Shown here: piece after piece, positions 6,591 through 59,196 of the stretch
Numbering within the stretch: position 1 is the stretch's first letter
Layout of the letters: each line of letters opens with the position of its first letter
Source of the DNA: an uncultured bacterium
Lineage (GTDB): Bacteria; Fermentibacterota; Fermentibacteria; Fermentibacterales; Fermentibacteraceae
Direction of reading: 5' to 3'
DNA length: 64,000 nt
NCBI GenBank assembly: GCA_964564435.1
Contig: CAZMAT010000003.1
Location: forward strand, 96,451-160,450
Made by a program: the position numbers and the translations under genes
Notes under the pieces: model-generated
Told to the model about the DNA's origin: nothing
Databases searched by the model: none
Seen by the model: the letters and a program-made list of their open reading frames with translations, nothing else

Positions 6591-7871
6591 TCATTGGGAC
6601 ATGCTCGCCATCGCGTCAAGGAACCTCTTGTTGGACTTGTGCTGGGAGATCTGCTTCTTGAGGAGTTCCATGGCCTCCACGGGATTGAGGTCGACCAGGA
6701 TCTTCCTCATTATCCAGACCTTGCTCAGGGTCTCCTCGTCGAGGAGCAGCTCCTCGCGCCTGGTGCCCGACTTCGTGATGTCGATGGCGGGGAAGACCCT
6801 GCGGTCGGCGAGCCTCCTGTCGAGGACTATCTCGCTGTTGCCGGTTCCCTTGAACTCCTCGAAGATGACCTCGTCCATCCTGCTGCCGGTGTCCACGAGG
6901 GCCGTCCCGACTATCGTCAGGCTACCGCCCTCCTCGGCCTTCCTGGCCGCGCCGAAGAACCTCTTGGGGCGCTGCAGGGCGTTGGAGTCGACACCGCCGG
7001 AGAGGATCTTGCCGGAATGGGGGATCACGGTGTTGTTGGCCCGGGCGAGGCGCGTGATGGAGTCGAGCAGGATCACGACGTCGTGGCCGCTCTCGACCAT
7101 CCTCTTGGCCTTCTCGAGCACTATGTCGGCCACCTGGACGTGGCGCTTGGGGGCTTCGTCGAACGTGGAGCTGATCACCTCGCCCCTGACGTTGCGCTTC
7201 ATGTCCGTGACCTCTTCGGGCCTCTCGTCGATCAGGAGGACGATGAGCACCACCTCGGGGTGGTTTATGGCTATGCTGTTCGCTATGTGCTGGAGGAGTA
7301 TGGTCTTGCCCGCCCGCGGCGGGGAGACTATCAGGGCGCGCTGCCCCTTCCCCAGCGGGGTCAGGAGATCCATGATGCGGCCGCTGAACTCCTCCGAGTC
7401 GTGCTCCAGGATGAAGCGCTCCTTGGGGTAGTAGGGGGTCAGCTCGTCGAAGTTGCGCCGTGTCCTGGCGAGATCGGGGCTCTTCTGGTTGACCGTCTCG
7501 ACCCTGAGGAGGGCGAGGTACTTCTCGCCTTCCTTGGGCTGCCTGACCTGGCCAGATATCGTGTCGCCCGTCAGGAGTCCGAACCGCTTTATCTGAGACG
7601 GGGAGACGTAGATGTCGTTGGTCCCTGGCAGGTAGTTGGATTCGACGGCCCTGAGGAAGCCGTACCCCTCGGGCAGGGTCTCCAGCACTCCCGTCGCGAA
7701 CTCGAGCCCGTTCTTCTCGGTCTGGCTCTCGAGCATCATCTGGATGAGATCTCGCTTCCTGCAACCGGCGATACCCTTGATCTCCATGCTCTTGGCTATG
7801 GCCTGGAGCTCCACCAGCGTCATGCTCTCGAGATCGGAAAGGGAATGACCGTCGAGCGGCTTTTCTACCAT
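6591..7871 (-). CDS. rho: transcription termination factor Rho
   Basis: Full Rho architecture (N-terminal RNA-binding domain, Walker A PPRAGKT, RecA-like core). Start re-picked at [23 protein letters not shown] (ATG at 7871, 426 aa); the track ORF is 51 codons longer. Confidence 0.92.
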
Positions 7872-8029
7872 TGAGTCCCTCAATCGGTTCGGGTTAACGA
7901 GAGATATGGGGGGCGAATGCGCCTGCCCAGCGGCCGTATCCGGGAACCGCGTAATGGAACATCCGTATCTGTCAAGCAGTTTCGGATCGACGGATCGGAA
8001 AGCACTAATAAATTGTTTCAACAAAGAGG

Positions 8030-8610
8030 AGAGTCAAGCCCCTTGCTCCGCGTCCGCGGAGCAAGGGGCTGGGAGCGGCAGCACGCTCATCTCCGCGTCC
8101 GCGGAGATGAGCAGGCCCGGCAGTGGCTTGCCAACCCTCCGATTCTCCGGTTCGGCAAGCCGCGAGAGGGCCGGGGTGTATAGTCCAGTCTCGCCTCTGC
8201 GAGACTGGCACGCGCACTCGCAGTTTCCTGCTTGGAAACTGCTGTAGCGCTACCCGTCGATTTCGGCAGGCTGGAAACTGATTTTCATGTCAGCCGAAAT
8301 CGATGATGCGGGAGCGATCCAGCCTGCTGCTCGATATCCTTGCGTCTGACCCGCCGTGAACGCAGGCCGGGCGCCGGGTTCTCTCGCGGTTCGCCCATCT
8401 AGTCGTGCTGGATGCTGGCGAACCACTGTCGAACCTGCTCATTCCCGCCGACGCGGGAAAGAGCGCCCTGCGCAGGATCCAGCCCTTTCCGCGGGCTGTC
8501 TGAAGATCAAGCCCTTCCTTGCGAGGCTTGCACGCATACCCGCGGTTTCCTGCTGGGAAACCGCTGAAATGCTACCCGCCGATTTCGGCGAAGCCGAAAT
8601 CGGAGTATAC
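8030..8610. repeat. hairpin-rich intergenic repeat array upstream of rho, at least two copies of the ~140-bp structured element family
   Basis: At least 8 perfect or near-perfect stem-loops, including 8039-8068 and 8085-8112 (both with loop cgcgtccgcgg), gcagtttcc-tgcttg-ggaaactgc, and cgatttcggc...gccgaaatcg. Shares the agcggcagcacg, ggcacgcgYactcgcagttt and gctacc motifs with the repeats at 53.9-54.4 kb and 57.1-57.4 kb. Confidence 0.7.
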
Positions 8611-8617
8611 TCCCCCG

Positions 8618-10195
8618 GTGAACAGGCGCAGGTTCTCCCGGATCGCCGTGCTGTCGGCCGCCCTGGCGGCGGCCGCCGCATCCTCCCTGGCTTCCCTGCG
8701 GTACGAACCGGGCCCGTGGTCCTGGGCGGCCTCCGCCGTCTGCGCCGCATCGGCGGCGCTCCTTGCCTCTCGCGGCCACCGGGACGGAAACGGCGCGTCG
8801 ACCCACCGGCAGGCATCCGCCGCCGCCCTCGTCCTCTCCTCCGTGAGGCTGACCGGAGGCTTCGGCGGGCCCCTGACTCCGCTCTACTTCCTGCTCCTCG
8901 CCTGGATGGCGGGGCGTCCCGTCCAGGGGCCCGCACTCGAGGCCGGGATCGCCCTGGGACTCGTCGAGGGGCTGCTCACCGCATCCAGGGGCGGCCTGAT
9001 CACCCCCGGTCTCCTGGGCAGGCTTTCGGCGGCTGCCCTGCCTCTCGTCGCACTTCCGGTGTCGTCGCTCGCGCTGGAATGGATGGCATCGGGAGGCGGG
9101 CGCGCGAAAGGTCCGGGGAGCAGATCCGGGCGGACTGGTCCATGCGGGAATGATCCTGCTCCCGTCTCGCAGGGCTGCCTGGAGCTCGTCAAATCGATCG
9201 CCCAGGCCGGCAGTCTCGGCGGGGCCATACACTCGACCGCAGCCTGGCTGGCAGGCTCCGGGAACGATCTGACCGTCACCGTCGGGCTCCTGTCCGGCGA
9301 CAGCGGCAGCCTCGACGTTTACGAATCGCTGGGCCCCCTGGCGCAGGGACGAGTCGGCATGAACTTCGACCTGGAGGGCTCGGTGGCGGGGTGGACCATC
9401 AGGAGCGGCAACTCGATATCGCGCTGCGGCCTCGGGAGCGGCGGGCGGGCCGTCACCACGCTCTCCCGGTCCGATCCATCGACCGTGCGCTGCGGGAGCT
9501 GCTCGGCAGCACCCGTGGTGATCTCCGGCAAGAGCGTCGGAGTCCTGCTCGTCGAATCCCCCTCGGAGGAGGGCACCGGAACCGGAGTCGAGGGGACGCT
9601 CGACCTGGCGGCCGGGCTGCTCGGCCTGGCGATAGAGAAGATCCTCCTCCGCGAGCAGAAGAAGGATCTCCAGAACAGGGACGGTCTGACGGGGCTTCCG
9701 CATCCCGTGGACTTCATGGATTTCGTGAGGCGGACATCGAGGGACGTCTACCGGTTCGGCAGGAGCGTATCCCTGTTCGTGGTGGAGATCGATTCCCTCG
9801 AGGAGGTGAACGCCGCGCACGGTTTGAGGGGAGGGAACAGGCTCCTGTCCGCCTGCGGCGAGAGCCTCGGAGGGATTGCCGGCTCCGAGGCGGCTATCAC
9901 CAGGCTCTCGGCCTCGAAATTCGCGATCTGCATCCCCGGCATGGACCAGGCCGCGGCGGAGGCGTTCGCCGAGAGCGTCGTGAGGAGCTTCGACGGCATG
10001 AAGGTGAAGCTGGAGTCCGGCGAGATATCGCCGAGAGTCGTCGTGGGGGGGGCGGTGACGAGGAGCGACAGGAGGATCGAGTCGCTATGTGCCGAGGCTT
10101 CGCGGGCCATGGTCTCCGCGAGGGCGGTCTCCTCGAGGTTCCAGGTCGCGCTCCTGCTCGCATCCGGACAGAACCACGGGGCCGTCGATCCTTGA
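8618..10195 (+). CDS. membrane-anchored GAF/GGDEF-domain protein with degenerate GGDEF
   Basis: About 5 N-terminal TM helices, a central GAF-like region, and a C-terminal GGDEF fold (GLTGLPHPVDFMDF...LFVVEIDSLEEV...RLSASKFAICIPG). The GG[DE]EF signature is replaced by SASKF. The 5' end of the track ORF overlaps a repeat element, so the start was moved to GTG 8618; this is uncertain. Confidence 0.65.
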   Translation: MNRRRFSRIAVLSAALAAAAASSLASLRYEPGPWSWAASAVCAASAALLASRGHRDGNGASTHRQASAAALVLSSVRLTGGFGGPLTPLYFLLLAWMAGRPVQGPALEAGIALGLVEGLLTASRGGLITPGLLGRLSAAALPLVALPVSSLALEWMASGGGRAKGPGSRSGRTGPCGNDPAPVSQGCLELVKSIAQAGSLGGAIHSTAAWLAGSGNDLTVTVGLLSGDSGSLDVYESLGPLAQGRVGMNFDLEGSVAGWTIRSGNSISRCGLGSGGRAVTTLSRSDPSTVRCGSCSAAPVVISGKSVGVLLVESPSEEGTGTGVEGTLDLAAGLLGLAIEKILLREQKKDLQNRDGLTGLPHPVDFMDFVRRTSRDVYRFGRSVSLFVVEIDSLEEVNAAHGLRGGNRLLSACGESLGGIAGSEAAITRLSASKFAICIPGMDQAAAEAFAESVVRSFDGMKVKLESGEISPRVVVGGAVTRSDRRIESLCAEASRAMVSARAVSSRFQVALLLASGQNHGAVDP

Positions 10196-10209
10196 GGGTC
10201 GCGGCAAGG

Positions 10210-10590
10210 GTGCTCCTGTTCGCTCTGGCAGCGGTGATCTGGATCCTGAGCTCGGATCCCGCCCCGGATTACATCCCGCCCCTCTTCCCATATCAGGACA
10301 AGCTCATGCATTTCGTGGAGTTCGCCTCGCTGGGATTCGCCATCTCGCTGAACCGCGACCTGTTCCGGAGATCGGACGGCGCCGCCCTCGCCTCCGGCGT
10401 TCTGTGGGCGGGACTCGACGAGATCCACCAGGCCTACGTCCCGGGAAGGGACTGCTCGACCGGCGATTTCCTGGCCGACTGCGCCGGGCTGGCCGCGGGT
10501 TTCGCGGCCGGGGCTCTGAGGTCGGCCAGGGCTGGCCGCAGGCGCAGGCTTGGCCTTATGTTCCGCGAACGGAGTGAAAGCGGCTCTTGA
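10210..10590 (+). CDS. VanZ-like family membrane protein
   Basis: LFPYQDKLMHFVEFA...GLDEIHQAYVPGRDCSTGDFLADCAG matches the VanZ family. It is the 3' part of track ORF 9391..10590, whose 5' portion is antisense to the GGDEF gene. Start uncertain (GTG 10210 or TTG 10192). Confidence 0.6.
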   Translation: MLLFALAAVIWILSSDPAPDYIPPLFPYQDKLMHFVEFASLGFAISLNRDLFRRSDGAALASGVLWAGLDEIHQAYVPGRDCSTGDFLADCAGLAAGFAAGALRSARAGRRRRLGLMFRERSESGS

Positions 10591-10698
10591 CACCGCTTCA
10601 CCGGCAGGATACGATCTTCAGTCGGACAGGGGTCGGTCCTCAAGTTGTTCCCAGGGGTCCATTCAGCCATTCTGACCAGTCGAGAGGAGGTCCCGCGT

Positions 10699-10965
10699 AT
10701 GCCTAGAGCCAGGATGATCTGGTTCTGCCTGGCAGTTCTCAGCGCCGCCCTGCTTCTCTCCGCCTGCGGTCCCAGCGAGGCACAGATCCGTGCCAGGGAC
10801 GAGGCCAGGAGTGCGGCTCTTGCGGCCGAAGCCAGGGCAGCCAGCCTTCAGGCCGAGTATGCAGATCTGACCGAGTCCATCCCCCAGAAGGAGGCTCAGG
10901 TCCAGTCACTTCAGCAGGAGCTCGCCGAGCTCCAGGCCGAGTATCAGGCACTCGGCGGCCGCTAG
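10699..10965 (+). CDS. small coiled-coil lipoprotein
   Basis: MPRARMIWFCLAVLSAALLLSACG signal and lipobox, then heptad-like AQIRARDEARSAALAAEARAASLQAEYADL... GAGAGGAGG RBS precedes ATG 10699. Confidence 0.5.
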   Translation: MPRARMIWFCLAVLSAALLLSACGPSEAQIRARDEARSAALAAEARAASLQAEYADLTESIPQKEAQVQSLQQELAELQAEYQALGGR

Positions 10966-10980
10966 GAGGGGGGGAACGCA

Positions 10981-11658
10981 ATGAATCGCAACTTCGCAAT
11001 GATCCTTGCAGCGACTCTGTTCCTCGCATCCGGCGCCGTTGCGGGAACCTGGTCCGCTGAAGAGCTGTCCCAGTACACGCACGATGAGATCGACGCCATG
11101 GGCAACGACAACCTCCCTCTCCAGATCGCCTACTGGGAGTGGGTCAAGGCCGAGGCCGACGATGTGATAGCCGAGTGGGAGCCCCAGGTTCTCCCTCTGC
11201 GCGCCCAGGCTCAGGATCTGGACAACCAGATCGCCAGCCTCCAGAACCAGATCAACCAGCTCAGGGCCGACATCGAGAGGCTCCGCAACTCCGGCGTGAC
11301 CCACAACATCGTCGAGGGCGAGTGCCTCTGGACCATCGCGTCCTACCACTACTACTTCAACGACGGCACCAAGTGGCCGCAGATCTACGAGCGCAACCGC
11401 GAGACGATAAGCGACCCCGACCTGATCTACGCCGGTCACACGCTCATCGTCCCCGTGCCCATGGTCAGCAGCTACACGGTCGTCGATGGTGACTACCTCG
11501 GCAAGATCGCCGGCTACGGCGTCGTCTACGGCGACAGGGGCATGTGGCCCCAGCTCTATGAAGCAAACCGCGGTGTGATCAGCGATCCCAACCTGATCTA
11601 TCCCGGCCAGGTTCTCACCGTCCCCAGGACCGGCTCGAGGCCTGGTACCACCCGTTAG
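10981..11658 (+). CDS. secreted LysM-domain protein (two LysM repeats)
   Basis: Signal peptide, a coiled-coil stretch, then two LysM-like modules (HNIVEGECLWTIAS...DLIYAGHTLIVP and YTVVDGDYLGKIAG...NLIYPGQVLTVP). GGAGGGGGG RBS. Confidence 0.8.
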   Translation: MNRNFAMILAATLFLASGAVAGTWSAEELSQYTHDEIDAMGNDNLPLQIAYWEWVKAEADDVIAEWEPQVLPLRAQAQDLDNQIASLQNQINQLRADIERLRNSGVTHNIVEGECLWTIASYHYYFNDGTKWPQIYERNRETISDPDLIYAGHTLIVPVPMVSSYTVVDGDYLGKIAGYGVVYGDRGMWPQLYEANRGVISDPNLIYPGQVLTVPRTGSRPGTTR

Positions 11659-11672
11659 AAAACTGTCGAGCG

Positions 11673-11710
11673 GGGAAGCTCCTCCGGTCCCGGGGGAGCT
11701 TCCCTTTTCT
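11673..11710 (+). terminator. Rho-independent terminator after the LysM gene
   Basis: gggaagctcc-tccggtcccgg-ggagcttccc is a perfect 10-bp GC-rich stem followed by ttttct. Confidence 0.6.
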
Positions 11711-53034: not shown

Positions 53035-53658
53035 CTATTCGAAAATGTACTTGATGGAGGCAAAGGTCTCGTTCTCGAGATCGTTCGTCCCTGCGAGTAT
53101 CCAGTGGGGGACAGTCGACTCGAGCCCGCCGGTCGGCTGGCCGTCCGGGCTGCAGAAGACCGCGCGTCCGTCGGCACCGTTCCAGTTGTACACATAGACC
53201 GACTGACTGTCCGGGGTCGCGGTCCACTCTATGTCTATCAGCAGATTGTTGCTCCCGTTGTAGAAGAAGGGGGTGTCCAGGTCAGTGCTGAACCACTGGT
53301 CCGGGCCGAGACCCGACAGCGTGTACGTAGACCTGCTGAACACAAGCGTCTTCGACGACGGGACGTAGTTGTTCTCGAAGTTCGTGCCAAGAGCATCGAG
53401 GGTCGTGTAGCCCATGTAGATCTTGAAGTTGTTGTAGGAGCCGTGGTCTTCGCCGAACGGCGCACGCTTCCACATGAGATCCTGGATCGTGATCGCCGTG
53501 CCTATCTCGCTGTCGAGCACTACCACCTGGTAGCGCATTCCGGCAGGATATCAACCACCGCAGAAAGGCGTACTGCCGAGCCCTACGTCGCTGCCTATCT
53601 CGACGTCGGCCATCGCAGCCGTCGAAAGCAGCAGTGCCGCTGATATCAGTCTGTTCAT
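53035..53658 (-). CDS. secreted protein interrupted by in-frame TGA (signal peptide-CGG-TGA-mature domain): candidate selenoprotein or pseudogene
   Basis: ATG 53658 has a strong GGAAGGAGGAAGG RBS. Reads MNRLISAALLLSTAAMADVEIGSDVGLGSTPFCGG, then TGA at 53551-53553, then the same frame continues YPAGMRYQVVVLDSEIG... to the stop at 53035. An 8-bp stem with AGGU loop lies 14 nt downstream of the UGA. Local GC (~57%) is lower than background. Confidence 0.4.
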
Positions 53659-53767: not shown

Positions 53768-53845
53768 GGTCCGGTAGTTCAATTTGGTTAGAGCACCGCC
53801 CTGTCACGGCGGAAGTTGCGGGTTCGAGTCCCGTCCGGACCGCCA
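53768..53845 (+). tRNA. tRNA-Asp (anticodon GTC)
   Basis: 78 nt: acceptor GGTCCGG/CCGGACC, anticodon stem CCGCC/GGCGG with loop CTGTCAC, T-arm GCGGG-TTCGAGT-CCCGT, discriminator G, encoded CCA. Confidence 0.9.
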
Positions 53846-53862
53846 CTTCCCGCGCCCGCGGG

Positions 53863-54420
53863 AAGTGGCAGCGTCGCCAGCACTGTTTGCGAAGCAAACG
53901 TGCGAGAGACCATCAATCCAGCCTGTCACTCCTGTTCGATTTCGTGTGTCTGACTACTGCTTGCGCCGCAGCATTGCTCGCACTTCTTTCGAGGCTCTTC
54001 AGCTCGCACTGCGGGTCCTTCCGGGGGGCGTTGCCTCCCGTCCCCCTCATTTCGCGAAGCGAAATGAGAAACAAGCGGCAGCACGGTTCGCGAAGCGAAC
54101 CTGCGAGAGCGATCCAGCTGATCTGGTGGCACGCGTACTCGCAGTTTTCTGCGAAAACTGCTGTTACGCTACCTATCGATTCCGCCCTGCGAAATCGATG
54201 AAATTAGAAGGAAGCGGCAGCACGGTTCGCGAAGCGAACCTGCGAGAGCGATCCAGCTGATCTGGTGGCACGCGTACTCGCAGTTTGCTGCGAAAACTGC
54301 TGTTACGCTACCTATCGATTCCGCCCCGCGAAATCGATGAAATAAGAAGGAAGCGGCAGCACGGTTCGCGAAGCGAACCTGCGAAAGCGATCAAGCCTGT
54401 CCTCGAGCCCATGCGGTTCT
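53863..54420. repeat. 139-bp tandem repeat (about 2.3 near-identical copies plus one degenerate copy), each unit carrying three small hairpins
   Basis: Units begin at 54073, 54212 and 54351 (period 139) with only 3-4 mismatches. Internal hairpins are ggttcgc-gaa-gcgaacc, gcagtttt-ctgcg-aaaactgc and tcgatt...aatcga. A degenerate copy at 53863-54072 directly follows tRNA-Asp. Confidence 0.8.
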
Positions 54421-54429
54421 TCACCGTTA

Positions 54430-57120
54430 AGTGGGGCACAGGTCCTGTTCAGCAGCACCGTGCTCTCACCCTGAGTCTGTAGTTCTCGAAGCCCTTGAAG
54501 CCGTTGATGCTCCTGGAGATCTGATTTATCAGCTTGTTTCTGCTTCCGCAAAACAAGCTGGCTGCTATCGGCTCATCACTCTGTGTATCCACGCTGGGTA
54601 AGCTGATAATGTACGTCTACAGAAAATCTGCCCGCTTGTAGTCAACTACACTGTGAAGTCTTGATTGTCGACCCATCAGAGAATCCATTGCGCTTCTACA
54701 AGCAACAGGTTCAAGATCATTTCTCTGTAAGCAACGACGAGTTCTCCATCGATCCTGTGTTTCGAATCTGACGGACGCGGAAGCGTAAAAGGGCTCTAAG
54801 TCAATGTAGCAATCGACATTGGGCAACTACTTATATGCGGTATGATGCCGTGCTGGTCAGTATTCGACAGGCCATACCCATGCGGCTTCTTCGGACATTT
54901 GGTTGACATGGTTGCTCCCGCATACTAGTCATCGATCACTACTCACACTGAGTAACAACAGTTGCGGCATCTTCAGGGGGGTTGACGATGGGCATCGCCT
55001 TGGTTGCGCTTATCGTTACCGGAACACTGAACCTCACCAGTTATAACGTATGGAAACCGGCTTCGTGGAACAGGGCAGACGCTCGGGATCTGGTGATATC
55101 ATCTGTAACGGGTAATCCGGTTGTTGCAGGAGGCAGATGAAACATAGTCGGAGGCTCCGGTGGAGCCGATGAAGGAGAGTTCCGGGTCTGGGAATTTGAT
55201 CTTGCATCGCTTGGAACAACACCTCCTGCTGGTAGTGAGCCCTATCTATGGACATACGCGTATGCTGGAAGCACTGACTACTCTTCTCAGAAAGCACATG
55301 CACTTACTGCGTACGGATCCACGGAAGAAAACGAGAGCTACCTCGTAGCCGGCCATGACCACTACTGGCTCGGTCCGGTGCCGCACCTGCTCATATCGGA
55401 CTTGTATGTAGCAGGTGGATCTTCTCCCATTGGATCAGACCATCAATTCGAACGACCTGGTTCTGTCATGCCCGAGGCGAATGACATAGTCTACATTGAT
55501 GACATCAGTTCATTCGTCACCGGCTCTACCGGTGCAGGAATGGCTACCTGCGGAACCTATCGCCCAGGCGAAGGGTATCCCAAGCAGCCTTTCCTTCAGA
55601 TATCGGACATCGATGACTATTCGACGGTCTTCCCTGGTCTTTCGTCATCATCCTGGGGAAGAAGCCTCGGAGCAGTAGTATACGACTCGGAAAACAGCAT
55701 CATCGTTGCAGCCGGCATGTCTACGGGTTCGCCTTCAACGAATAGAATAGATAGAATAGTGATCTGCGGCTATAACCGATTCATAGGAGCCGTCGAGAAC
55801 TCCTTCTCGCTTGGCAGCTGCTTCTTAAGTGAAAACGAAGTCGAAGCATACAGACCGCCTCTTGTGGATCTCGGCGGAGGATTCTATCTGTATTTGACCA
55901 GCATACAAGGGCCGGTGGACATCTCGGGTTACTCATGGCACGGAGTTATCGCTACATTGTGGAAGTACAGCAATAATGGCGGAGTCGCGTCGATCAACTG
56001 CGTATCAAGTGACATCTGCAGGATACAGAACATCGCCGGCTACAGCAAGTTCTCCGACTTCATACCATTTTCGATAGGGCTTACCGAGAGCTTTGGAAGT
56101 TCCGGCGGTGACGCTGTCGTGCTGATTAACTCTAGATACACAGATGCACGGGAAGAGATCGACCAGTCCCGCCTTGTTGTTGGTACCGTGAATGTTGTTA
56201 TGGGATCTTCGCCAACAGTTGATATTGCAGACGGAGTCAATGATTTCCAAACGATACGGATACTACCAGAGCAGGAGTTCCAATCGGGTTGCGCGTACCA
56301 GGCCATGCTGGGGAACGAATTTGTCTTTACCGATTGCAGCAGCAGTGAGGCTTTTTCTGGAACCGGAGTAGGTGTTTTCTACAAGAGCCTGACATGTCAT
56401 GATTACAAGAAGATCTGGCTCTTCCAGATATCGCCGTCGAACGCAGAGGCGTCGATTGTACCGATGACGGAGCGAGAAGACCAGACCTATCCAGCGTCAG
56501 AAGTGAGCTTCCATCTGACCTCTAATCCGGTAGTGGATGGCGTTGTCGAAATTGCCACGAATGGGACGATTTCGACAGGTACAGAGGCTTTGTTGTTTGA
56601 TGTTTCGGGGAGGATGATCGGTCGAACCAGCCCCGATGTCTCTGGCACTTTCAGAATCGCAAGCGTTCATGGATGCCCTCTGCCAACTGGTGTCTATACT
56701 GCCGTGGTTACCCAGAACGGGGAGGCGTGCTTCGTTAGTACATGCGCTGTCATTGACTAAATGACATAGTGCTGCGACCAGCTTTGTGGGCTGCGCCTGC
56801 GCAGCCCACAACCTTATTGCTAACTAGTGTGGACGACGCATTACAAAGAGACAAGGTTCAATATAAGCTAGATTGTGATATTCAACCGCTTCATAGTACA
56901 ATGGGTGAGTTTCCGGTGTTGGAGTCATTTTCTCGACAGCAGAGTTCTTCCCTTATGCCTTATCTCAGTCCAGATGCTCTAGCACTCAACCTTTGCTATC
57001 CCAGCTGCCAGCGGCCTTATCGATTCTCCTAACTAGAACGCTTTGATGCTCCAAGCCTGACCGTGCTGAACCATTTACAGAAACCCCAGCAGACTAACAT
57101 TCCAACAGGTGATCCATATC
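54430..57120. mobile_element. low-GC (~50%) islet adjacent to tRNA-Asp, bracketed by copies of the hairpin-repeat family, no recognisable mobility genes
   Basis: Sharp compositional drop against the ~68% GC background. Located 3' of a tRNA gene, with repeat copies on both borders (53863-54420 and 57125-57370). A single large ORF lies inside. Confidence 0.6.
54988..56760 (+). CDS. islet-encoded Ser/Gly-rich secreted protein with T9SS-type C-terminal sorting domain, containing an in-frame TGA at 55138
   Basis: ATG 54988 has an AGGGGGG RBS. Reads MGIALVALIVTGTLNL... (hydrophobic N-terminus) for 50 codons, TGA, then the same frame continues 540 codons. The C-terminus (NPVVDGVVEIATNG...ALLFDVSGRMIG...GVYTAVVTQNGEACFV) matches the Por/T9SS CTD pattern. 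A stem-loop with GGU-containing loop lies 12 nt after the UGA. The track reports only the 55378..56760 part. Confidence 0.5.
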
Positions 57121-57124
57121 AAGT

Positions 57125-57370
57125 GTGATCCTTGCATCAACGACCCTTCACTCACGCATACGTGGATTGATGATGTGGCCTGCACGGTTCTCACGCGGAG
57201 AACGTGCGAAAGCGAACAGGTTGCCCAGATACTCAAGCCGGAATACCCGTGCACTCGTGCCTGACGGAAACCTTGATCCGCCCGAGGTGGATCAAGGCAC
57301 GCCCTGTCGCGGTTTCCCTTCGGGAAACCACTGTCGGGCTACCCATCGATTCCGCTTCGCGAAATCGATG
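57125..57370. repeat. right-border copy of the hairpin-repeat family
   Basis: cgcggtttccc-ttcg-ggaaaccac tgtcgggctacccatcgattccgcttcgcgaaatcgatg parallels the 139-bp unit (gcagttttctgcgaaaactgctgttacgctacctatcgattccgccctgcgaaatcgatg). The upstream part has gcacggttc...gcgaaagcgaac similarity. Confidence 0.55.
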
Positions 57371-57381
57371 TGACGATCCGG

Positions 57382-57648
57382 CTACTCCAGCATGACCAGC
57401 CGGTGGGCCGAAGCTCCTGACTGCGTCGATATCCTCACGAGATAGACCCCCGGAGCGAAGCCGCCGATCCCGGTCTCGTTGACCCCGGCCGCCGCCGGGA
57501 TCGCAGGTGCTTCCTGCACGATCCTCCCCGAGACGTCGAAGACCGACACGTCCACGGCCGCCGCGGAACCGAGGACGAATCTCACGGTAGCCAGGCCCGC
57601 CGCCGGATTGGGGAAGACGCACGACAAGGATATGATCCCGTGGTGCAT
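57382..57648 (-). CDS. orphan 88-aa ORF consisting only of a T9SS-type C-terminal sorting domain (likely gene remnant)
   Basis: MHHGIISLSCVFPNPAAGLATVRFVLGSAAAVDVSVFDVSGRIVQEAP...GVYLVRISTQSGASAHRLVMLE shows the CTD pattern with no catalytic or cargo domain. It abuts the islet border repeat. Confidence 0.45.
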   Translation of the reverse strand: MHHGIISLSCVFPNPAAGLATVRFVLGSAAAVDVSVFDVSGRIVQEAPAIPAAAGVNETGIGGFAPGVYLVRISTQSGASAHRLVMLE

Positions 57649-57760
57649 CCAATATCCAACCGCCGTACGCCCCGGTCAATCGCATGAGGCCTGCACGGCC
57701 TGGATACTCTTCCGGAGGCTTTGGAACGTCGTATCTTCGGTGATCCGGAGGAGGTCGGCC

Positions 57761-58408
57761 TTGAAGAGACTCCCTGCCCTGGTCGCGATGCTCGCCCTCG
57801 TCCCCGCCGTGTGTCCCGCCGCCGCCGGGGACGGTCCGGTACCCCCGCTCTCCCCGCCAGTCCAGTCGGGATCGGGGGCCGGAGCTCCCGCTACGGTCGA
57901 GCAGTTCACGGAGGAGTCCGGAGACTGGTCCATCATGGGCGGGGGGAGCGTGACGGCGGACCGGCTCGTCTCGTTCCTCCTCGAGAACAACCCCGGTGCC
58001 GACAGCGGGAGGGTGGCGCTGCTCGCCTCGCTCTACGTCGAGGAGGCGGCGTTCGAGGGGGTCGACTCCGACGTGGCCTTCGTGCAGATGTGCCACGAGA
58101 CCGGCTTCCTGCGGTTCGGGGGGCTCGTGACGGAGGAGATGAACAACTTCTGCGGGCTCGGATCGACGGGGCCCGGGAATCCCGGGCTTTGGTTCCCCGA
58201 CGAACGCACCGGCGTGCGCGCCCACATACAGCACCTGAAGGCCTACGGATCCACCGAATCGCTGAACCTCGAGCAGGTCGACCCGCGCTTCGGGATGGTC
58301 AGCCCCCGGGGGAAGTCCCCCGATGTCTTCGGCCTCTCGGGGACATGGGCCTCCGACAGGCACTACGGGGAGAGCCTGGCGGAACTGCTCCTGCGGCTGC
58401 GGGGCTGA
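57761..58408 (+). CDS. secreted peptidoglycan hydrolase with glucosaminidase (FlgJ-like) domain
   Basis: TTG 57761 is preceded by GGAGGAGG. Signal peptide MKRLPALVAMLALVPAVC. Glucosaminidase-like core (FVQMCHETGFLRFGG...NNFCGLG). The track ORF is over-extended from 57479. Confidence 0.65.
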   Translation: MKRLPALVAMLALVPAVCPAAAGDGPVPPLSPPVQSGSGAGAPATVEQFTEESGDWSIMGGGSVTADRLVSFLLENNPGADSGRVALLASLYVEEAAFEGVDSDVAFVQMCHETGFLRFGGLVTEEMNNFCGLGSTGPGNPGLWFPDERTGVRAHIQHLKAYGSTESLNLEQVDPRFGMVSPRGKSPDVFGLSGTWASDRHYGESLAELLLRLRG

Positions 58409-58466
58409 CTCCCCGCAACCACCTCCGCCTGCCGACCCGGCCCGCTCCGATCCGGGGATCGCCCCT

Positions 58467-58955
58467 TCAGGCCCCCATGGTCCAGGCGCTGATGGCTTCG
58501 AAGCCCGACCTGGGGATCTGGAGCCTGAACGACTGCCTTCCGTCCGCAGGCTCCACCAGCATGACGACGGCCTCCTCCATGGATCCGGTCGGCCCCGCCA
58601 GGGTCTTCATCTCCGCCTTCCGGTCGGTGAGGGAGACCGAGACGCCGCTCTTCTCGAAACCGATGGGCGGGTATCCGCCCTCGTTGTGGCCGAAGACCAG
58701 GCGCCCCCGGTCCGTTGTGGCAGCCATGACGTTGATGCCGCGCTTGCGCACGCCGAGGACCTCGCCGACCTTGTCACCGATGGTCCTGTCGATGTCGTAG
58801 AAGCATACCCACATCGCGCTGACCTGCTCGCCCTCGGCCAGGCCGAACAGCTTGACATAGTACCCCCGGCCGCCGTCTCTACCGATCTTGAACCACCAGT
58901 ATCCGCCGACCGCGGCTATCGCGACGACCAGGACGACGATCTGGACGACTCCCAT
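58467..58955 (-). CDS. hypothetical N-terminally membrane-anchored protein
   Basis: MGVVQIVVLVVAIAAVGGYWWF TM anchor. GGGAGGG RBS 4 nt before ATG 58955; the track ORF is over-extended to 59078. Confidence 0.45.
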   Translation of the reverse strand: MGVVQIVVLVVAIAAVGGYWWFKIGRDGGRGYYVKLFGLAEGEQVSAMWVCFYDIDRTIGDKVGEVLGVRKRGINVMAATTDRGRLVFGHNEGGYPPIGFEKSGVSVSLTDRKAEMKTLAGPTGSMEEAVVMLVEPADGRQSFRLQIPRSGFEAISAWTMGA

Positions 58956-59152
58956 TCCACCCTCCCCCGGCCGGGCGCCCCTGCCCGGCTTTATCAGGCT
59001 CCCCTGGGAAGCCCGAAGCCCATGCATGTATCCCGAAGGATTTGTCCGGTCCGGCACCCGGTCAAGCCTCCCTGCCATGCATGCGGTACTGATCCACGAT
59101 CCGGCGGCTCATACGGATGTATCGATCGCCCGGCCCCGGGCCGGTGCGCGGG

Positions 59153-59196
59153 TTGACATCGCGGGCACGCCCCGCGATAAACGCGAATGATTCGCG
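59153..59196 (+). promoter_or_regulatory. putative promoter (TTGACA-17-GATAAA) plus 7-1-7 palindromic operator CGCGAATgATTCGCG overlapping the zur start codon (candidate Zur/Fur box)
   Basis: TTGACA 59153-59158, GATAAA 59176-59181, palindrome 59182-59196 spanning ATG 59187. An 8-bp inverted repeat atcgcggg/cccgcgat also lies in the spacer. Confidence 0.45.

Follow-up and report, generated by a model that had tools for sequence, protein, structure and literature searches.

A candidate horizontally mobile selenoprotein gene with a conserved in-frame UGA in Candidatus Fermentibacteria

Introduction

Published constraints on bacterial selenocysteine insertion elements (bSECIS) specify 3-9 nt for the apical loop, 4-16 bp for the stem and 16-37 nt for the distance from the UGA, with a G in position 1 or 2 of the loop that is followed by G or U (PMC13188914). 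Cysteine-containing homologues exist for nearly all known selenoproteins (PMC13188914). Outside the selenoprotein genes themselves, the pairing of a selenocysteine (Sec) lyase-like gene with a PF11823 gene has been tied to selenium use; PF11823 proteins occur also in organisms that do not use selenium (PMC5322559). Our literature search yielded no paper that would link Fermentibacteria/Hyd24-12 or the type IX secretion system (T9SS) with selenoproteins.

Here we analyze a gene located in a low-GC islet (hereafter, the islet gene) within a 64-kb stretch of Candidatus Fermentibacteria DNA (hereafter, the window; all positions are those of the window). The first-pass annotation of this gene had noticed an in-frame UGA followed by a hairpin and offered two explanations, Sec recoding or an inactivating nonsense mutation. 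The comparison with a distant homologue, which shares the TGA column, the spacer, the stem and the conservation of coding on both sides, supports the first of these and excludes the second. From the aligned sequences, we consider it probable that the TGA at 55138-55140 is a Sec codon, that the hairpin downstream serves as the SECIS core and that a full-length protein is made. The islet protein is most likely a new, rare, horizontally mobile secreted selenoprotein rather than the product of a broken gene.

Reading frame of the islet gene

The start of the islet gene, on the forward strand, is as previously proposed: direct reading of the sequence gives a Shine-Dalgarno-like AGGGGGG (54975-54981), 6 nt upstream of the ATG at 54988-54990. 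The 50 codons of the first part (54988-55137) encode a hydrophobic N-terminus and then the conserved SYxxWxPxSW...PVVAGGR segment. The TGA follows, and the same frame continues for another 539 codons (55141-56757; the earlier count was 540) up to a TAA at 56758-56760, with a terminator-like 12-bp hairpin immediately 3' of the gene (56784-56811). Between 54949 and 56758, the islet frame contains a single stop, compared with 36-37 stops per 2.5 kb in the other two frames. The coding signal favors the islet frame on both sides of the UGA, as judged by codon scores and by residue conservation; the segment 54988-55137 scores +5 bits in frame versus -20 and -23 bits out of frame.

Gene callers split the locus at the UGA and annotate only a 430-residue fragment that lacks a signal (P0001, 55468-56757). 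Other than the sorting domain at the C-terminus, discussed below, no domain in the islet protein was found in Pfam or NCBIfam, a profile search of the PDB sequences gave no match (best E = 1), and AlphaFold on the full-length islet protein plus its homologue gave a mean pLDDT of 31, that is, an unusable model. By eye, the xVAGG repeats of the protein resemble beta-propeller blades, with no family match. The tryptic Sec peptide predicted from the islet frame is U-NIVGGSGGADEGEFR, which reads UNIVGGSGGADEGEFR, with Sec adding +47.94 Da relative to Cys.

The UGA and the downstream hairpin

The UGA is separated by a 12-nt spacer (55141-55152) from a candidate bSECIS core, GGCUCC-GGU-GGAGCC (55153-55167), which consists of a 6-bp stem and the apical loop GGU (55159-55161). 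The hairpin with a GGU loop described at this distance in the first-pass annotation is indeed the predicted minimum free energy structure. The loop of 3 nt, the stem of 6 bp, the GG and the 18 nt that separate the UGA from the loop all lie within the bSECIS constraints, and the same holds for the homologue. The TGA is not a sequencing error because it recurs, together with the identical hairpin, in 14 independent Logan assemblies.

In the window sequence alone, the islet hairpin is not statistically remarkable, and its significance comes from the conservation in the homologue. Its fold z-score is -0.4 to -1.2, and when bSECIS-like rules are applied loosely, such a hairpin follows 33% of the TGA triplets of the window; strict rules, set post hoc, are satisfied by 0.8% of these triplets. 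A permissive Rfam scan of 54900-55400 retrieved only chance snoRNA-like matches and no SECIS family. The first-pass annotation had also argued that two UGA and GGU-hairpin sites within 2 kb are unlikely to arise by chance; the companion site at 53551 is well supported. The only other in-frame UGA candidate in the window, at 57676-57678 on the reverse strand, was rejected given that its upstream frame is the antisense of a glucosaminidase gene.

A single distant homologue and the features it shares

Among 1.84 billion representative sequences, the islet protein has one distant relative (P0005, ∼33% identity along the entire protein), which is encoded on three metagenome contigs, L011, L024 and L025, from two host species (the L011 and L024 assemblies are ERZ25038444 and ERR14940446). 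The layout of the homologous DNA is the same: a ribosome-binding site (GGAGG, 7 nt 5' of the ATG) and the ATG are followed by 51 codons and by an in-frame TGA after an identical PVVAGGR, then by a 12-nt spacer and GGCUCC-GGC-GGAGCC. The spacer has kept its length but not its sequence (AACAUAGUCGGA in the window versus ACAACGAUUACA in L011), and the stem is identical in the window and L011, the sole change in the hairpin being U to C in the loop. The segments preceding the UGA are 50% identical (25 of the 50 residues). The UGA is at the center of the best-conserved 20-residue block (14 identical residues, versus at most 10 of 20 elsewhere), and the 57 nt at 55111-55167 are the only part of the islet gene that can still be aligned with the homologue as DNA, the rest being similar at the protein level only.

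The probability that the GSGGA codons of the homologue would form the stem by chance is 5e-4 for Watson-Crick pairs and 0.03 if G-U pairs are allowed; with the observed codon identity of 39%, it is about 0.02. The stem is retained through synonymous sites. With only two divergent members in the family, the hairpin is conserved with no compensatory change, and RNAalifold reports a second possible pairing, between CUCC and the GGAG upstream.

The suggestion that homologues should be inspected for Cys or Sec at the aligned position gave a divided answer, with UGA occupying the same column in all three contigs and no Cys form. None of the searched collections contains a Cys-form homologue, a result of low power for a two-member family. 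No further family members were detected in GTDB genomes (searched twice) or in JGI metagenomes with the protein profile, in IMG/VR (searched twice) or PLSDB with tblastn, or among 5.8 billion clusters with a profile of the N-terminal 160 residues. A codon-degenerate VVAGGR-TGN-N12-GSGGA pattern had a single match in JGI metagenomes (L012), which was rejected as a chance match in another frame of a Gfo/Idh/MocA-type gene.

Probable selenocysteine decoding in the hosts

About 1.5 kb from the islet gene, on the reverse strand, lies a native gene (53035-53658) that in five lineages, down to 40% identity, retains C-G-[GS]-UGA after a signal peptide. Its hairpin has 8 bp and an AGGU loop, with two compensatory pairs and none broken. 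Judging from this pattern, the 53551 site belongs to a well-supported selenoprotein gene and, because the C-x-x-UGA motif and the covarying hairpin are kept together in five lineages, the host very probably decodes Sec. None of selA, selB, selC, selD and tRNA-Sec is present within the 64-kb window. In the other hosts, the islet-type cassette directly follows a TIGR01977 NifS/Sec-lyase-like gene (391 bits, cut-off 377) and a PF11823 (DUF3343) Se/S-carrier gene (28.3 bits, cut-off 25).

A mobile single-gene cassette

The description of the surrounding DNA as horizontally acquired is borne out by its foreign composition and by its absence from the syntenic site of a relative. The cassette (54340-57324) is ∼50% GC in a genome of ∼69% GC, is situated downstream of tRNA-Asp (53768-53845) and has on either side, at 54294-54339 and at 57325-57370, a copy of the 3' part of a 139-nt repeat. 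Neither an ORF resembling an integrase nor a flanking repeat derived from the tRNA was found at the cassette. In every host, the islet gene is a one-gene low-GC cassette and is AT-richer than the host, with a gene GC content of 44-52%; no tRNA adjoins the cassette in the other hosts.

The gene is also polymorphic in the populations of the host organism. At 55894-55896 (forward strand), the codon TTG (Leu) is intact in L001-L010, and the substitution T55895A in L020-L023 turns it into TAG, which truncates the islet protein. Because this allele segregates in some populations, the islet gene is dispensable in the host and may be decaying there.

Export features

The proposed T9SS C-terminal domain reaches the threshold in the homologue but not in the window protein. 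A T9SS type-A sorting-domain-like region at residues 512-578 (56521-56721, forward strand) matches TIGR04183 with 16.5-21.2 bits, below the cut-off of 23, whereas the homologue reaches 23.1-27.9 bits; the PF18962 score is 18.1 bits versus a cut-off of 27. Likewise, of the proposed N-terminal export signal, the hydrophobic segment is present but the basic n-region is missing, so this is no textbook signal peptide. In both proteins of the family, a hydrophobic stretch spans ∼12 residues, and L-x-S|Y may serve as a cleavage site. The window also contains a PorQ/PorV-like gene and, close to the islet gene, a remnant ORF that consists only of a T9SS domain.

Alternative explanations of the UGA

The alternative that survives best, although we consider it unlikely, is that the UGA is a conserved programmed stop with a low level of SelB-independent read-through by a near-cognate tRNA aided by the hairpin, such that most ribosomes would yield a 50-residue hydrophobic peptide and only a minority the full-length protein. 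A conserved UGA, spacer and hairpin would suit any recoding signal, not Sec alone, the context is UGA-A in both copies of the gene, and there is neither a Cys homologue nor, as the first-pass annotation had already observed, a Cys partner near the UGA. To our knowledge, however, hairpin-stimulated, SelB-independent read-through of UGA is not an established mechanism in bacteria. Furthermore, the stop falls within the motif that shows the highest conservation in the protein, as expected of a functional residue rather than of a gate, selenium use by the hosts is indicated independently, the loop of the islet hairpin resembles that of the SECIS in the native gene 1.5 kb away (CC-(A)GGU-GG), and the hairpin obeys the bSECIS rules (PMC13188914).

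A second alternative posits two genes, one for a 50-residue membrane peptide ending at the TGA and the other for a protein initiated from GTG 55378 or ATG 55468. Both loci are divided in this manner by gene callers, and the 50-codon ORF has its own ribosome-binding site and ATG, but the region between the UGA and the annotated starts makes this arrangement quite improbable. The first in-frame start after the UGA is, as had been stated, GTG 55378, the 80th codon, and in both genes, 79-80 codons free of in-frame starts follow the UGA, with the residues conserved. The 79-110 codons from the UGA to the annotated starts are free of stops, where ∼3.5 would be expected by chance, and score as coding in the islet frame only. 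This segment contains GSGGA, RVWxFD, TDYSSQKA, ESY and GHDH, and of these, GSGGA, RVWxFD, TDYSSQKA and GHDH are conserved in the homologue, whereas the candidate starts occupy different alignment columns in the two genes. The downstream product would lack an export signal despite carrying a T9SS sorting domain. The first-pass annotation had named, as a refutation, homologues that would begin at the position corresponding to 55378 and bring their own signal peptide; this is not the case, the annotated start of the homologue being a TTG inside the conserved open frame and a gene-caller artifact.

The inactivation of an acquired gene by a nonsense mutation could be suspected from the foreign-looking DNA around it, from the dispensability of the gene with its TAG allele at 55895 and from the nearby remnant ORF, and yet it is highly improbable as an account of the UGA. 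A nonsense mutation was excluded because the UGA is shared with the homologue and lies in the best-conserved block, within the only stretch that is still alignable as DNA. Moreover, a mutation inherited from a common ancestor would entail subsequent decay of the frame, whereas both halves are open and conserved in two genes of only 33% identity (one stop in 591 codons of the window gene and one in 577 of the homologue), and two independent mutations at one codon, combined with the same hairpin, are not credible. The three contigs with the homologue are not chimeric copies either, given that the similarity outside the 57 nt is seen at the protein level only.

The notion that the UGA encodes Gly or Trp as a sense codon brought in from a donor with a reassigned code, for which the AT-richness of the gene and the Gly-rich residues flanking the UGA might be adduced, can be dismissed as negligibly probable: each of the two genes has a single UGA, identical in position, where several scattered ones would be expected, and we know of no UGA-reassigned lineages that fit a gene GC content of 44-52% together with a T9SS domain. 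In the host itself, UGA is not reassigned and TGA is otherwise a normal stop that ends 21 of the 41 native genes in the window; the islet gene and its homologue end in non-UGA stops, TAA and TAG.

Decoding model and implications

Under the Sec reading, translation would start at ATG 54988 and, at codon 51, SelB with Sec-tRNA(Sec) would be recruited by the hairpin at 55153-55167 acting as the bSECIS core, after which the ribosome would continue past the UGA to the TAA at 56758. The predicted product of ∼590 residues would contain a single Sec within PVVAGGR-U-xxxx-GSGGA, where the conservation of the protein is highest, and would probably be exported, with its hydrophobic start and the T9SS-type sorting domain at its end. 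Because there is no nearby Cys, the Sec would more likely be a nucleophile or a metal ligand than one half of a CxxU redox pair. The gene appears to move as a one-gene low-GC cassette between Sec-decoding hosts, which would mean that a SECIS-bearing gene can spread horizontally on its own among Sec-competent organisms.

We consider it an even call whether the islet gene and its homologue found a family of selenoproteins that are exported via T9SS, have no Cys forms, share the PVVAGGR-U motif, which is not of the CxxU type, and spread among FCB-group anaerobes in a one-gene cassette that comes with its own SECIS and, in other hosts, lands beside selenium-handling genes; at the same level of confidence, the islet gene and its CxxU neighbor would provide the first evidence of Sec in (exported proteins of) Candidatus Fermentibacteria. 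If Sec is confirmed, this would be a new selenoprotein family beyond the reach of screens for Cys/Sec pairs, which miss it because no Cys form exists, and Sec use would be extended both to a candidate phylum for which we found no such report and to cell-surface proteins routed through T9SS. As annotated, with the gene cut at the UGA, the real islet protein and its entire family are invisible in protein databases, and for genes in Fermentibacteria MAGs, an in-frame UGA should not by default imply a pseudogene.

Comparison with known systems

In its overall design, the islet gene resembles bacterial selenoprotein genes with a bSECIS, such as E. coli fdhF and those behind the consensus of Zhang and Gladyshev (PMC13188914), in that it has an in-frame UGA and an intragenic G+C-rich stem-loop. 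The likeness extends to a small apical loop that lies 18 nt from the UGA and opens with G-G/U, to the non-UGA stop and to the conservation of the UGA in an orthologue, but the islet gene differs in having neither a Cys homologue nor a redox partner Cys, and its two-member family shows no covariation and matches no Pfam, NCBIfam or PDB entry except for the sorting domain. The bulged U of the E. coli SECIS is missing from the islet element.

A closer comparison is available in the same genome, in the neighboring gene (53035-53658, reverse strand) 1.5 kb away, where a hydrophobic N-terminus is again shortly followed by a UGA and then, 11-14 nt downstream of it, by a hairpin with GGU in the loop, as in the islet gene. 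The neighbor, however, is native (GC3 of 0.85, syntenic in relatives), whereas the islet gene is foreign; the neighbor has a CxxU motif, which the islet gene lacks, and belongs to a far larger family; its signal peptide is canonical, and its hairpin shows compensatory changes across five lineages.

With T9SS cargo (TIGR04183 / PF18962), the islet protein shares a C-terminal region of ∼70-80 residues that matches the sorting-domain model, although the window copy is under the curated cut-off and its N-terminal signal is atypical; the searchable literature yielded no T9SS-sorted selenoprotein. The cassette is similar to tRNA-linked islands in being DNA of foreign composition that adjoins tRNA-Asp at a locus differing from relative to relative, and is distinct from them in carrying a single cargo gene, in lacking both an integrase and a duplication of the tRNA 3' end, and in being flanked by copies of a local 139-nt repeat.

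Architecture of the islet gene

The islet gene, as already read in the first-pass annotation, opens on the plus strand at ATG 54988 behind a Shine-Dalgarno-like AGGGGGG (54975-54981), runs for 50 sense codons up to an in-frame TGA (55138-55140) and continues in the same frame for 539 codons to TAA 56758-56760; 12 nt 3' of the UGA lies the stem-loop GGCUCC-GGU-GGAGCC (55153-55167), the predicted minimum-energy structure. This frame contains a single stop in 54949-56758, whereas the other two frames have 36 and 37 over 2.5 kb. Both flanks of the UGA look coding, with codon scores of +5.0 bits before it and +6.7 bits after it (-20 to -51 bits in the shifted frames), and the 79 codons from the UGA to GTG 55378 are free of stops, with ~3.5 expected by chance. 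As noted in the first pass, this GTG is the earliest in-frame start past the UGA; the public gene calls begin later still, at ATG 55468 (P0001, 430 amino acids). A sequencing error is ruled out as the source of the TGA: 14 independent Logan assemblies carry it together with an identical hairpin.

The export features previously proposed for the protein stand in part. The N-terminus (MGIALVALIVTGTLNLTS...) is hydrophobic but contains no basic residue, an atypical signal, and the type IX secretion system (T9SS) sorting domain (TIGR04183) scores 16.5-21.2 bits in the window protein, below the cut-off of 23. Apart from this sorting tail, no known domain was found in the protein, and structure prediction yielded no usable model (pLDDT 31). 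A terminator-like, G+C-rich hairpin of 12 bp (56784-56811), 24 nt past the stop codon, suggests that the cassette is a transcription unit of its own.

A homologue with the same interruption

When the islet protein was searched against 5.8 billion clusters by word index, only the self-match was returned; among 1.84 billion representatives, a complete HMMER pass detected a single relative, P0005 (31% identical), with the match beginning exactly at the annotated methionine. The coding DNA of P0005, on the ENA metagenome contig L011, shows upstream of that start the architecture of the islet gene, in the order GGAGG, ATG, 51 codons encoding MLHFIVSLLLLETIELASYDIWRPDSW...GEPVVAGGR, an in-frame TGA, a 12-nt spacer and GGCUCC-GGC-GGAGCC, followed by 79 more codons without any start codon. 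This start-less stretch shares GSGGA, YRVWHFD, TDYSSQKAQA, ESY and GGHDH with the window protein. The start common to the two annotated products is thus, judging from the DNA, a gene-caller artefact, and the homologous frame opens at the upstream ATG; the homologue does not start at the equivalent of 55378 with a signal peptide of its own, the outcome named in the first pass as a refutation.

Aligned over the full length, the window protein and the read-through form of P0005 are 33% identical, and identity declines from 50% in residues 1-50, before the UGA (25/50; window numbering), to 35% in residues 52-160, after it (38/109), and 28% in both residues 161-505 (95/345) and 506-590 (24/85). The best-conserved block, G-x-PVVAGGR-U-xxxx-GSGGA, is the 20-residue window centered on the UGA, with 14 identities compared with at most 10 elsewhere; as DNA, the two genes align only over 55111-55167 with L011 9647-9703, a segment that comprises the UGA and the hairpin. 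In the aligned column, where the first-pass annotation had proposed to look for cysteine or selenocysteine (Sec), the DNA of P0005 retains TGA. An inactivating nonsense mutation, the alternative offered at that stage, is excluded: a stop shared in one alignment column by genes whose two halves are open and conserved, at 33% protein identity, cannot be the product of decay.

Conservation of the hairpin

Taken in isolation, the 55153-55167 hairpin is unremarkable. The fold has a z-score of -0.4 to -1.2, and the region matches no Rfam family. Of the 1,406 TGA triplets that the window contains, one third are followed by such a hairpin under loose rules for a bacterial SECIS (bSECIS) and 0.8% under strict rules, which were picked post hoc. 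Between the islet gene and L011, all 12 stem nucleotides are identical and the sole change is U to C at the third loop base. The stem covers four synonymous third positions as well as the choice of Ser codon family. With the codon usage of the homologue as the null, the chance that GSGGA forms a 6-bp Watson-Crick stem is 5e-4, or 0.03 when G-U pairs are counted; a conservative null based on codon identity, which is 39% where the residues are identical, gives ~0.02. The spacer retains its length, and its four codons differ. RNAalifold offers an alternative in which CUCC pairs with an upstream GGAG. With two family members, compensatory change is impossible, so the stem is supported by conservation and not by covariation.

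Origin and spread of the cassette

The islet gene is of foreign origin, in agreement with the horizontal acquisition suggested previously: it lies in a trough of ~50% GC (roughly 54340-57324) in a genome of ~69%, just downstream of tRNA-Asp (53768-53845). In L018, a relative with the same flanking genes, tRNA-Asp is directly followed by a radical-SAM gene and znuABC, and the islet gene is absent; no copy was detected in either scan of the 185,579 GTDB species representatives. The gene was therefore acquired recently and in this lineage specifically. Synteny and the single named homologue, a 'Candidatus Fermentibacter daniensis' hypothetical protein 71% identical to the product of the neighboring gene, assign the organism to Candidatus Fermentibacteria (FCB group).

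On both sides, the trough is flanked by copies of the 3' portion of a 139-nt repeat, which forms a tandem array of 2.4 copies (54061-54396, 91-96% identical) downstream of tRNA-Asp; partial copies lie at 53860-53917, at 57325-57369 and, 46 kb away, at 8206-8265. All public assemblies break at this array, and the DNA after tRNA-Asp is likewise repeat-rich in L013, a Fermentibacter relative. The region downstream of tRNA-Asp is variable: 53846-59186 holds the repeats, the cassette, a sorting-domain-only ORF, a glucosaminidase-like gene, a 203-residue ORF and fur, followed by znuABC, compared with the lone radical-SAM gene in L018 (8432-9754). The sorting-domain-only ORF (57382-57648, minus strand; 88 residues, TIGR04183 at 45.7 bits, no cargo domain) could be a remnant or a small gene in its own right; an in-frame TGA 10 codons upstream (57676-57678) is probably meaningless because the frame beyond is antisense of the glucosaminidase gene.

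In L011, the homologue also occupies a one-gene GC trough (44% versus ~63%). In a second host contig, L024, the cassette (9350-11700 in both) is 99-100% identical and sits between the same two neighbor genes, whereas the flanking genes are only ~77-87% identical, which indicates that the cassette crossed a species boundary very recently, by transfer or in a gene-specific sweep, at the same site. In the population of the window, loss of the islet gene is polymorphic: at least four public assemblies read TAG instead of TTG at 55894-55896 (T55895A), which truncates the protein. Ten others are intact, and all retain UGA 55138. The gene is, accordingly, dispensable in this host.

Probable selenocysteine decoding in the hosts

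No sel genes are present within the 64-kb window, and the evidence that the host decodes Sec is indirect but strong. The neighboring '53551' gene (53035-53658, minus strand; ATG 53658, TGA 53551-53553, hairpin ~53517-53536), 1.5 kb from the islet gene, is native (GC3 0.85) and encodes a signal peptide followed by TPFCGG-UGA-YPAG. All 10 of its database homologues are mis-annotated, being called from just past the UGA. Five lineages, with protein identity as low as 40%, retain in their DNA C-G-[GS]-TGA behind a canonical signal peptide. An AGGU-loop hairpin of 8 bp, which lies 11-14 nt beyond the UGA, is kept across these lineages with two compensatory pairs (G-C to A-U, C-G to U-A) and no broken pair. 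The first-pass case for Sec in this gene is thus borne out, and it is a well-supported candidate for a genuine CxxU selenoprotein.

In L011 and L024, the cassette is immediately preceded by two selenium-linked genes, for a cysteine-desulfurase/Sec-lyase-like protein (TIGR01977, 391 bits, cut-off 377; 305 bits against SclA) and a PF11823 'Se/S carrier' (DUF3343; 28.3 bits, cut-off 25), a pair tied to selenium use by comparative genomics, not exclusively (PMC5322559). The upstream segment (6786-9395 in both contigs) holds two class-V aminotransferase genes, one of them the TIGR01977/SclA-like gene, and the PF11823 gene.

TGA is an ordinary stop codon in the window genome, ending 21 of 41 native window genes (TAG ends the other 20 and TAA none); the only TAA stop seen in the window is that of the islet gene. 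A donor with a reassigned code, in which UGA would be a sense codon, is excluded because each gene has exactly one UGA and because the hosts use TGA normally.

Interpretation

The possible explanations other than Sec increase in credibility from nonsense mutation through a reassigned-code donor and two separate genes to SelB-independent read-through. Division into two genes at UGA 55138 fails because it leaves unexplained the conserved, start-less 79-110 codons past the UGA. The most credible rival, programmed read-through independent of SelB, is less likely than Sec and is without positive support, and the hairpin fits the SECIS rules in a Sec-using setting. From the conserved anatomy, this weighing of rivals and the Sec-type recoding of the neighboring gene, UGA 55138 probably encodes Sec, directed by the 55153-55167 stem-loop, and the Sec-recoding option of the first-pass annotation gains from the retention of TGA, 12-nt spacer and stem in the DNA of P0005. 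SelB would be recruited at this UGA, the protein would be exported through the Sec system and T9SS, and residue 51 might have a catalytic role, if any.

The novelty lies in the protein, with no known Cys-form relatives, no CxxU motif and only the sorting tail as a known domain, as well as in its probable T9SS destination and cassette-like spread. Screens based on Cys/Sec pairs miss such a protein because it lacks Cys-form relatives, and no literature report on selenoproteins was found for Fermentibacteria or for T9SS cargo. The proposed recoding mechanism is the ordinary bacterial one. All testable constraints of the published bacterial SECIS model (PMC13188914) agree with both genes: an apical loop of 3 nt (model, 3-9 nt), an upper stem of 6 bp (4-16 bp), a loop starting with GG (G in position 1-2, then G or U) and 18 nt from the UGA to the apical loop (16-37 nt). 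Within the one genome, the apical regions of the '53551' and islet hairpins are alike, CC-AGGU-GG and CC-GGU-GG, respectively.
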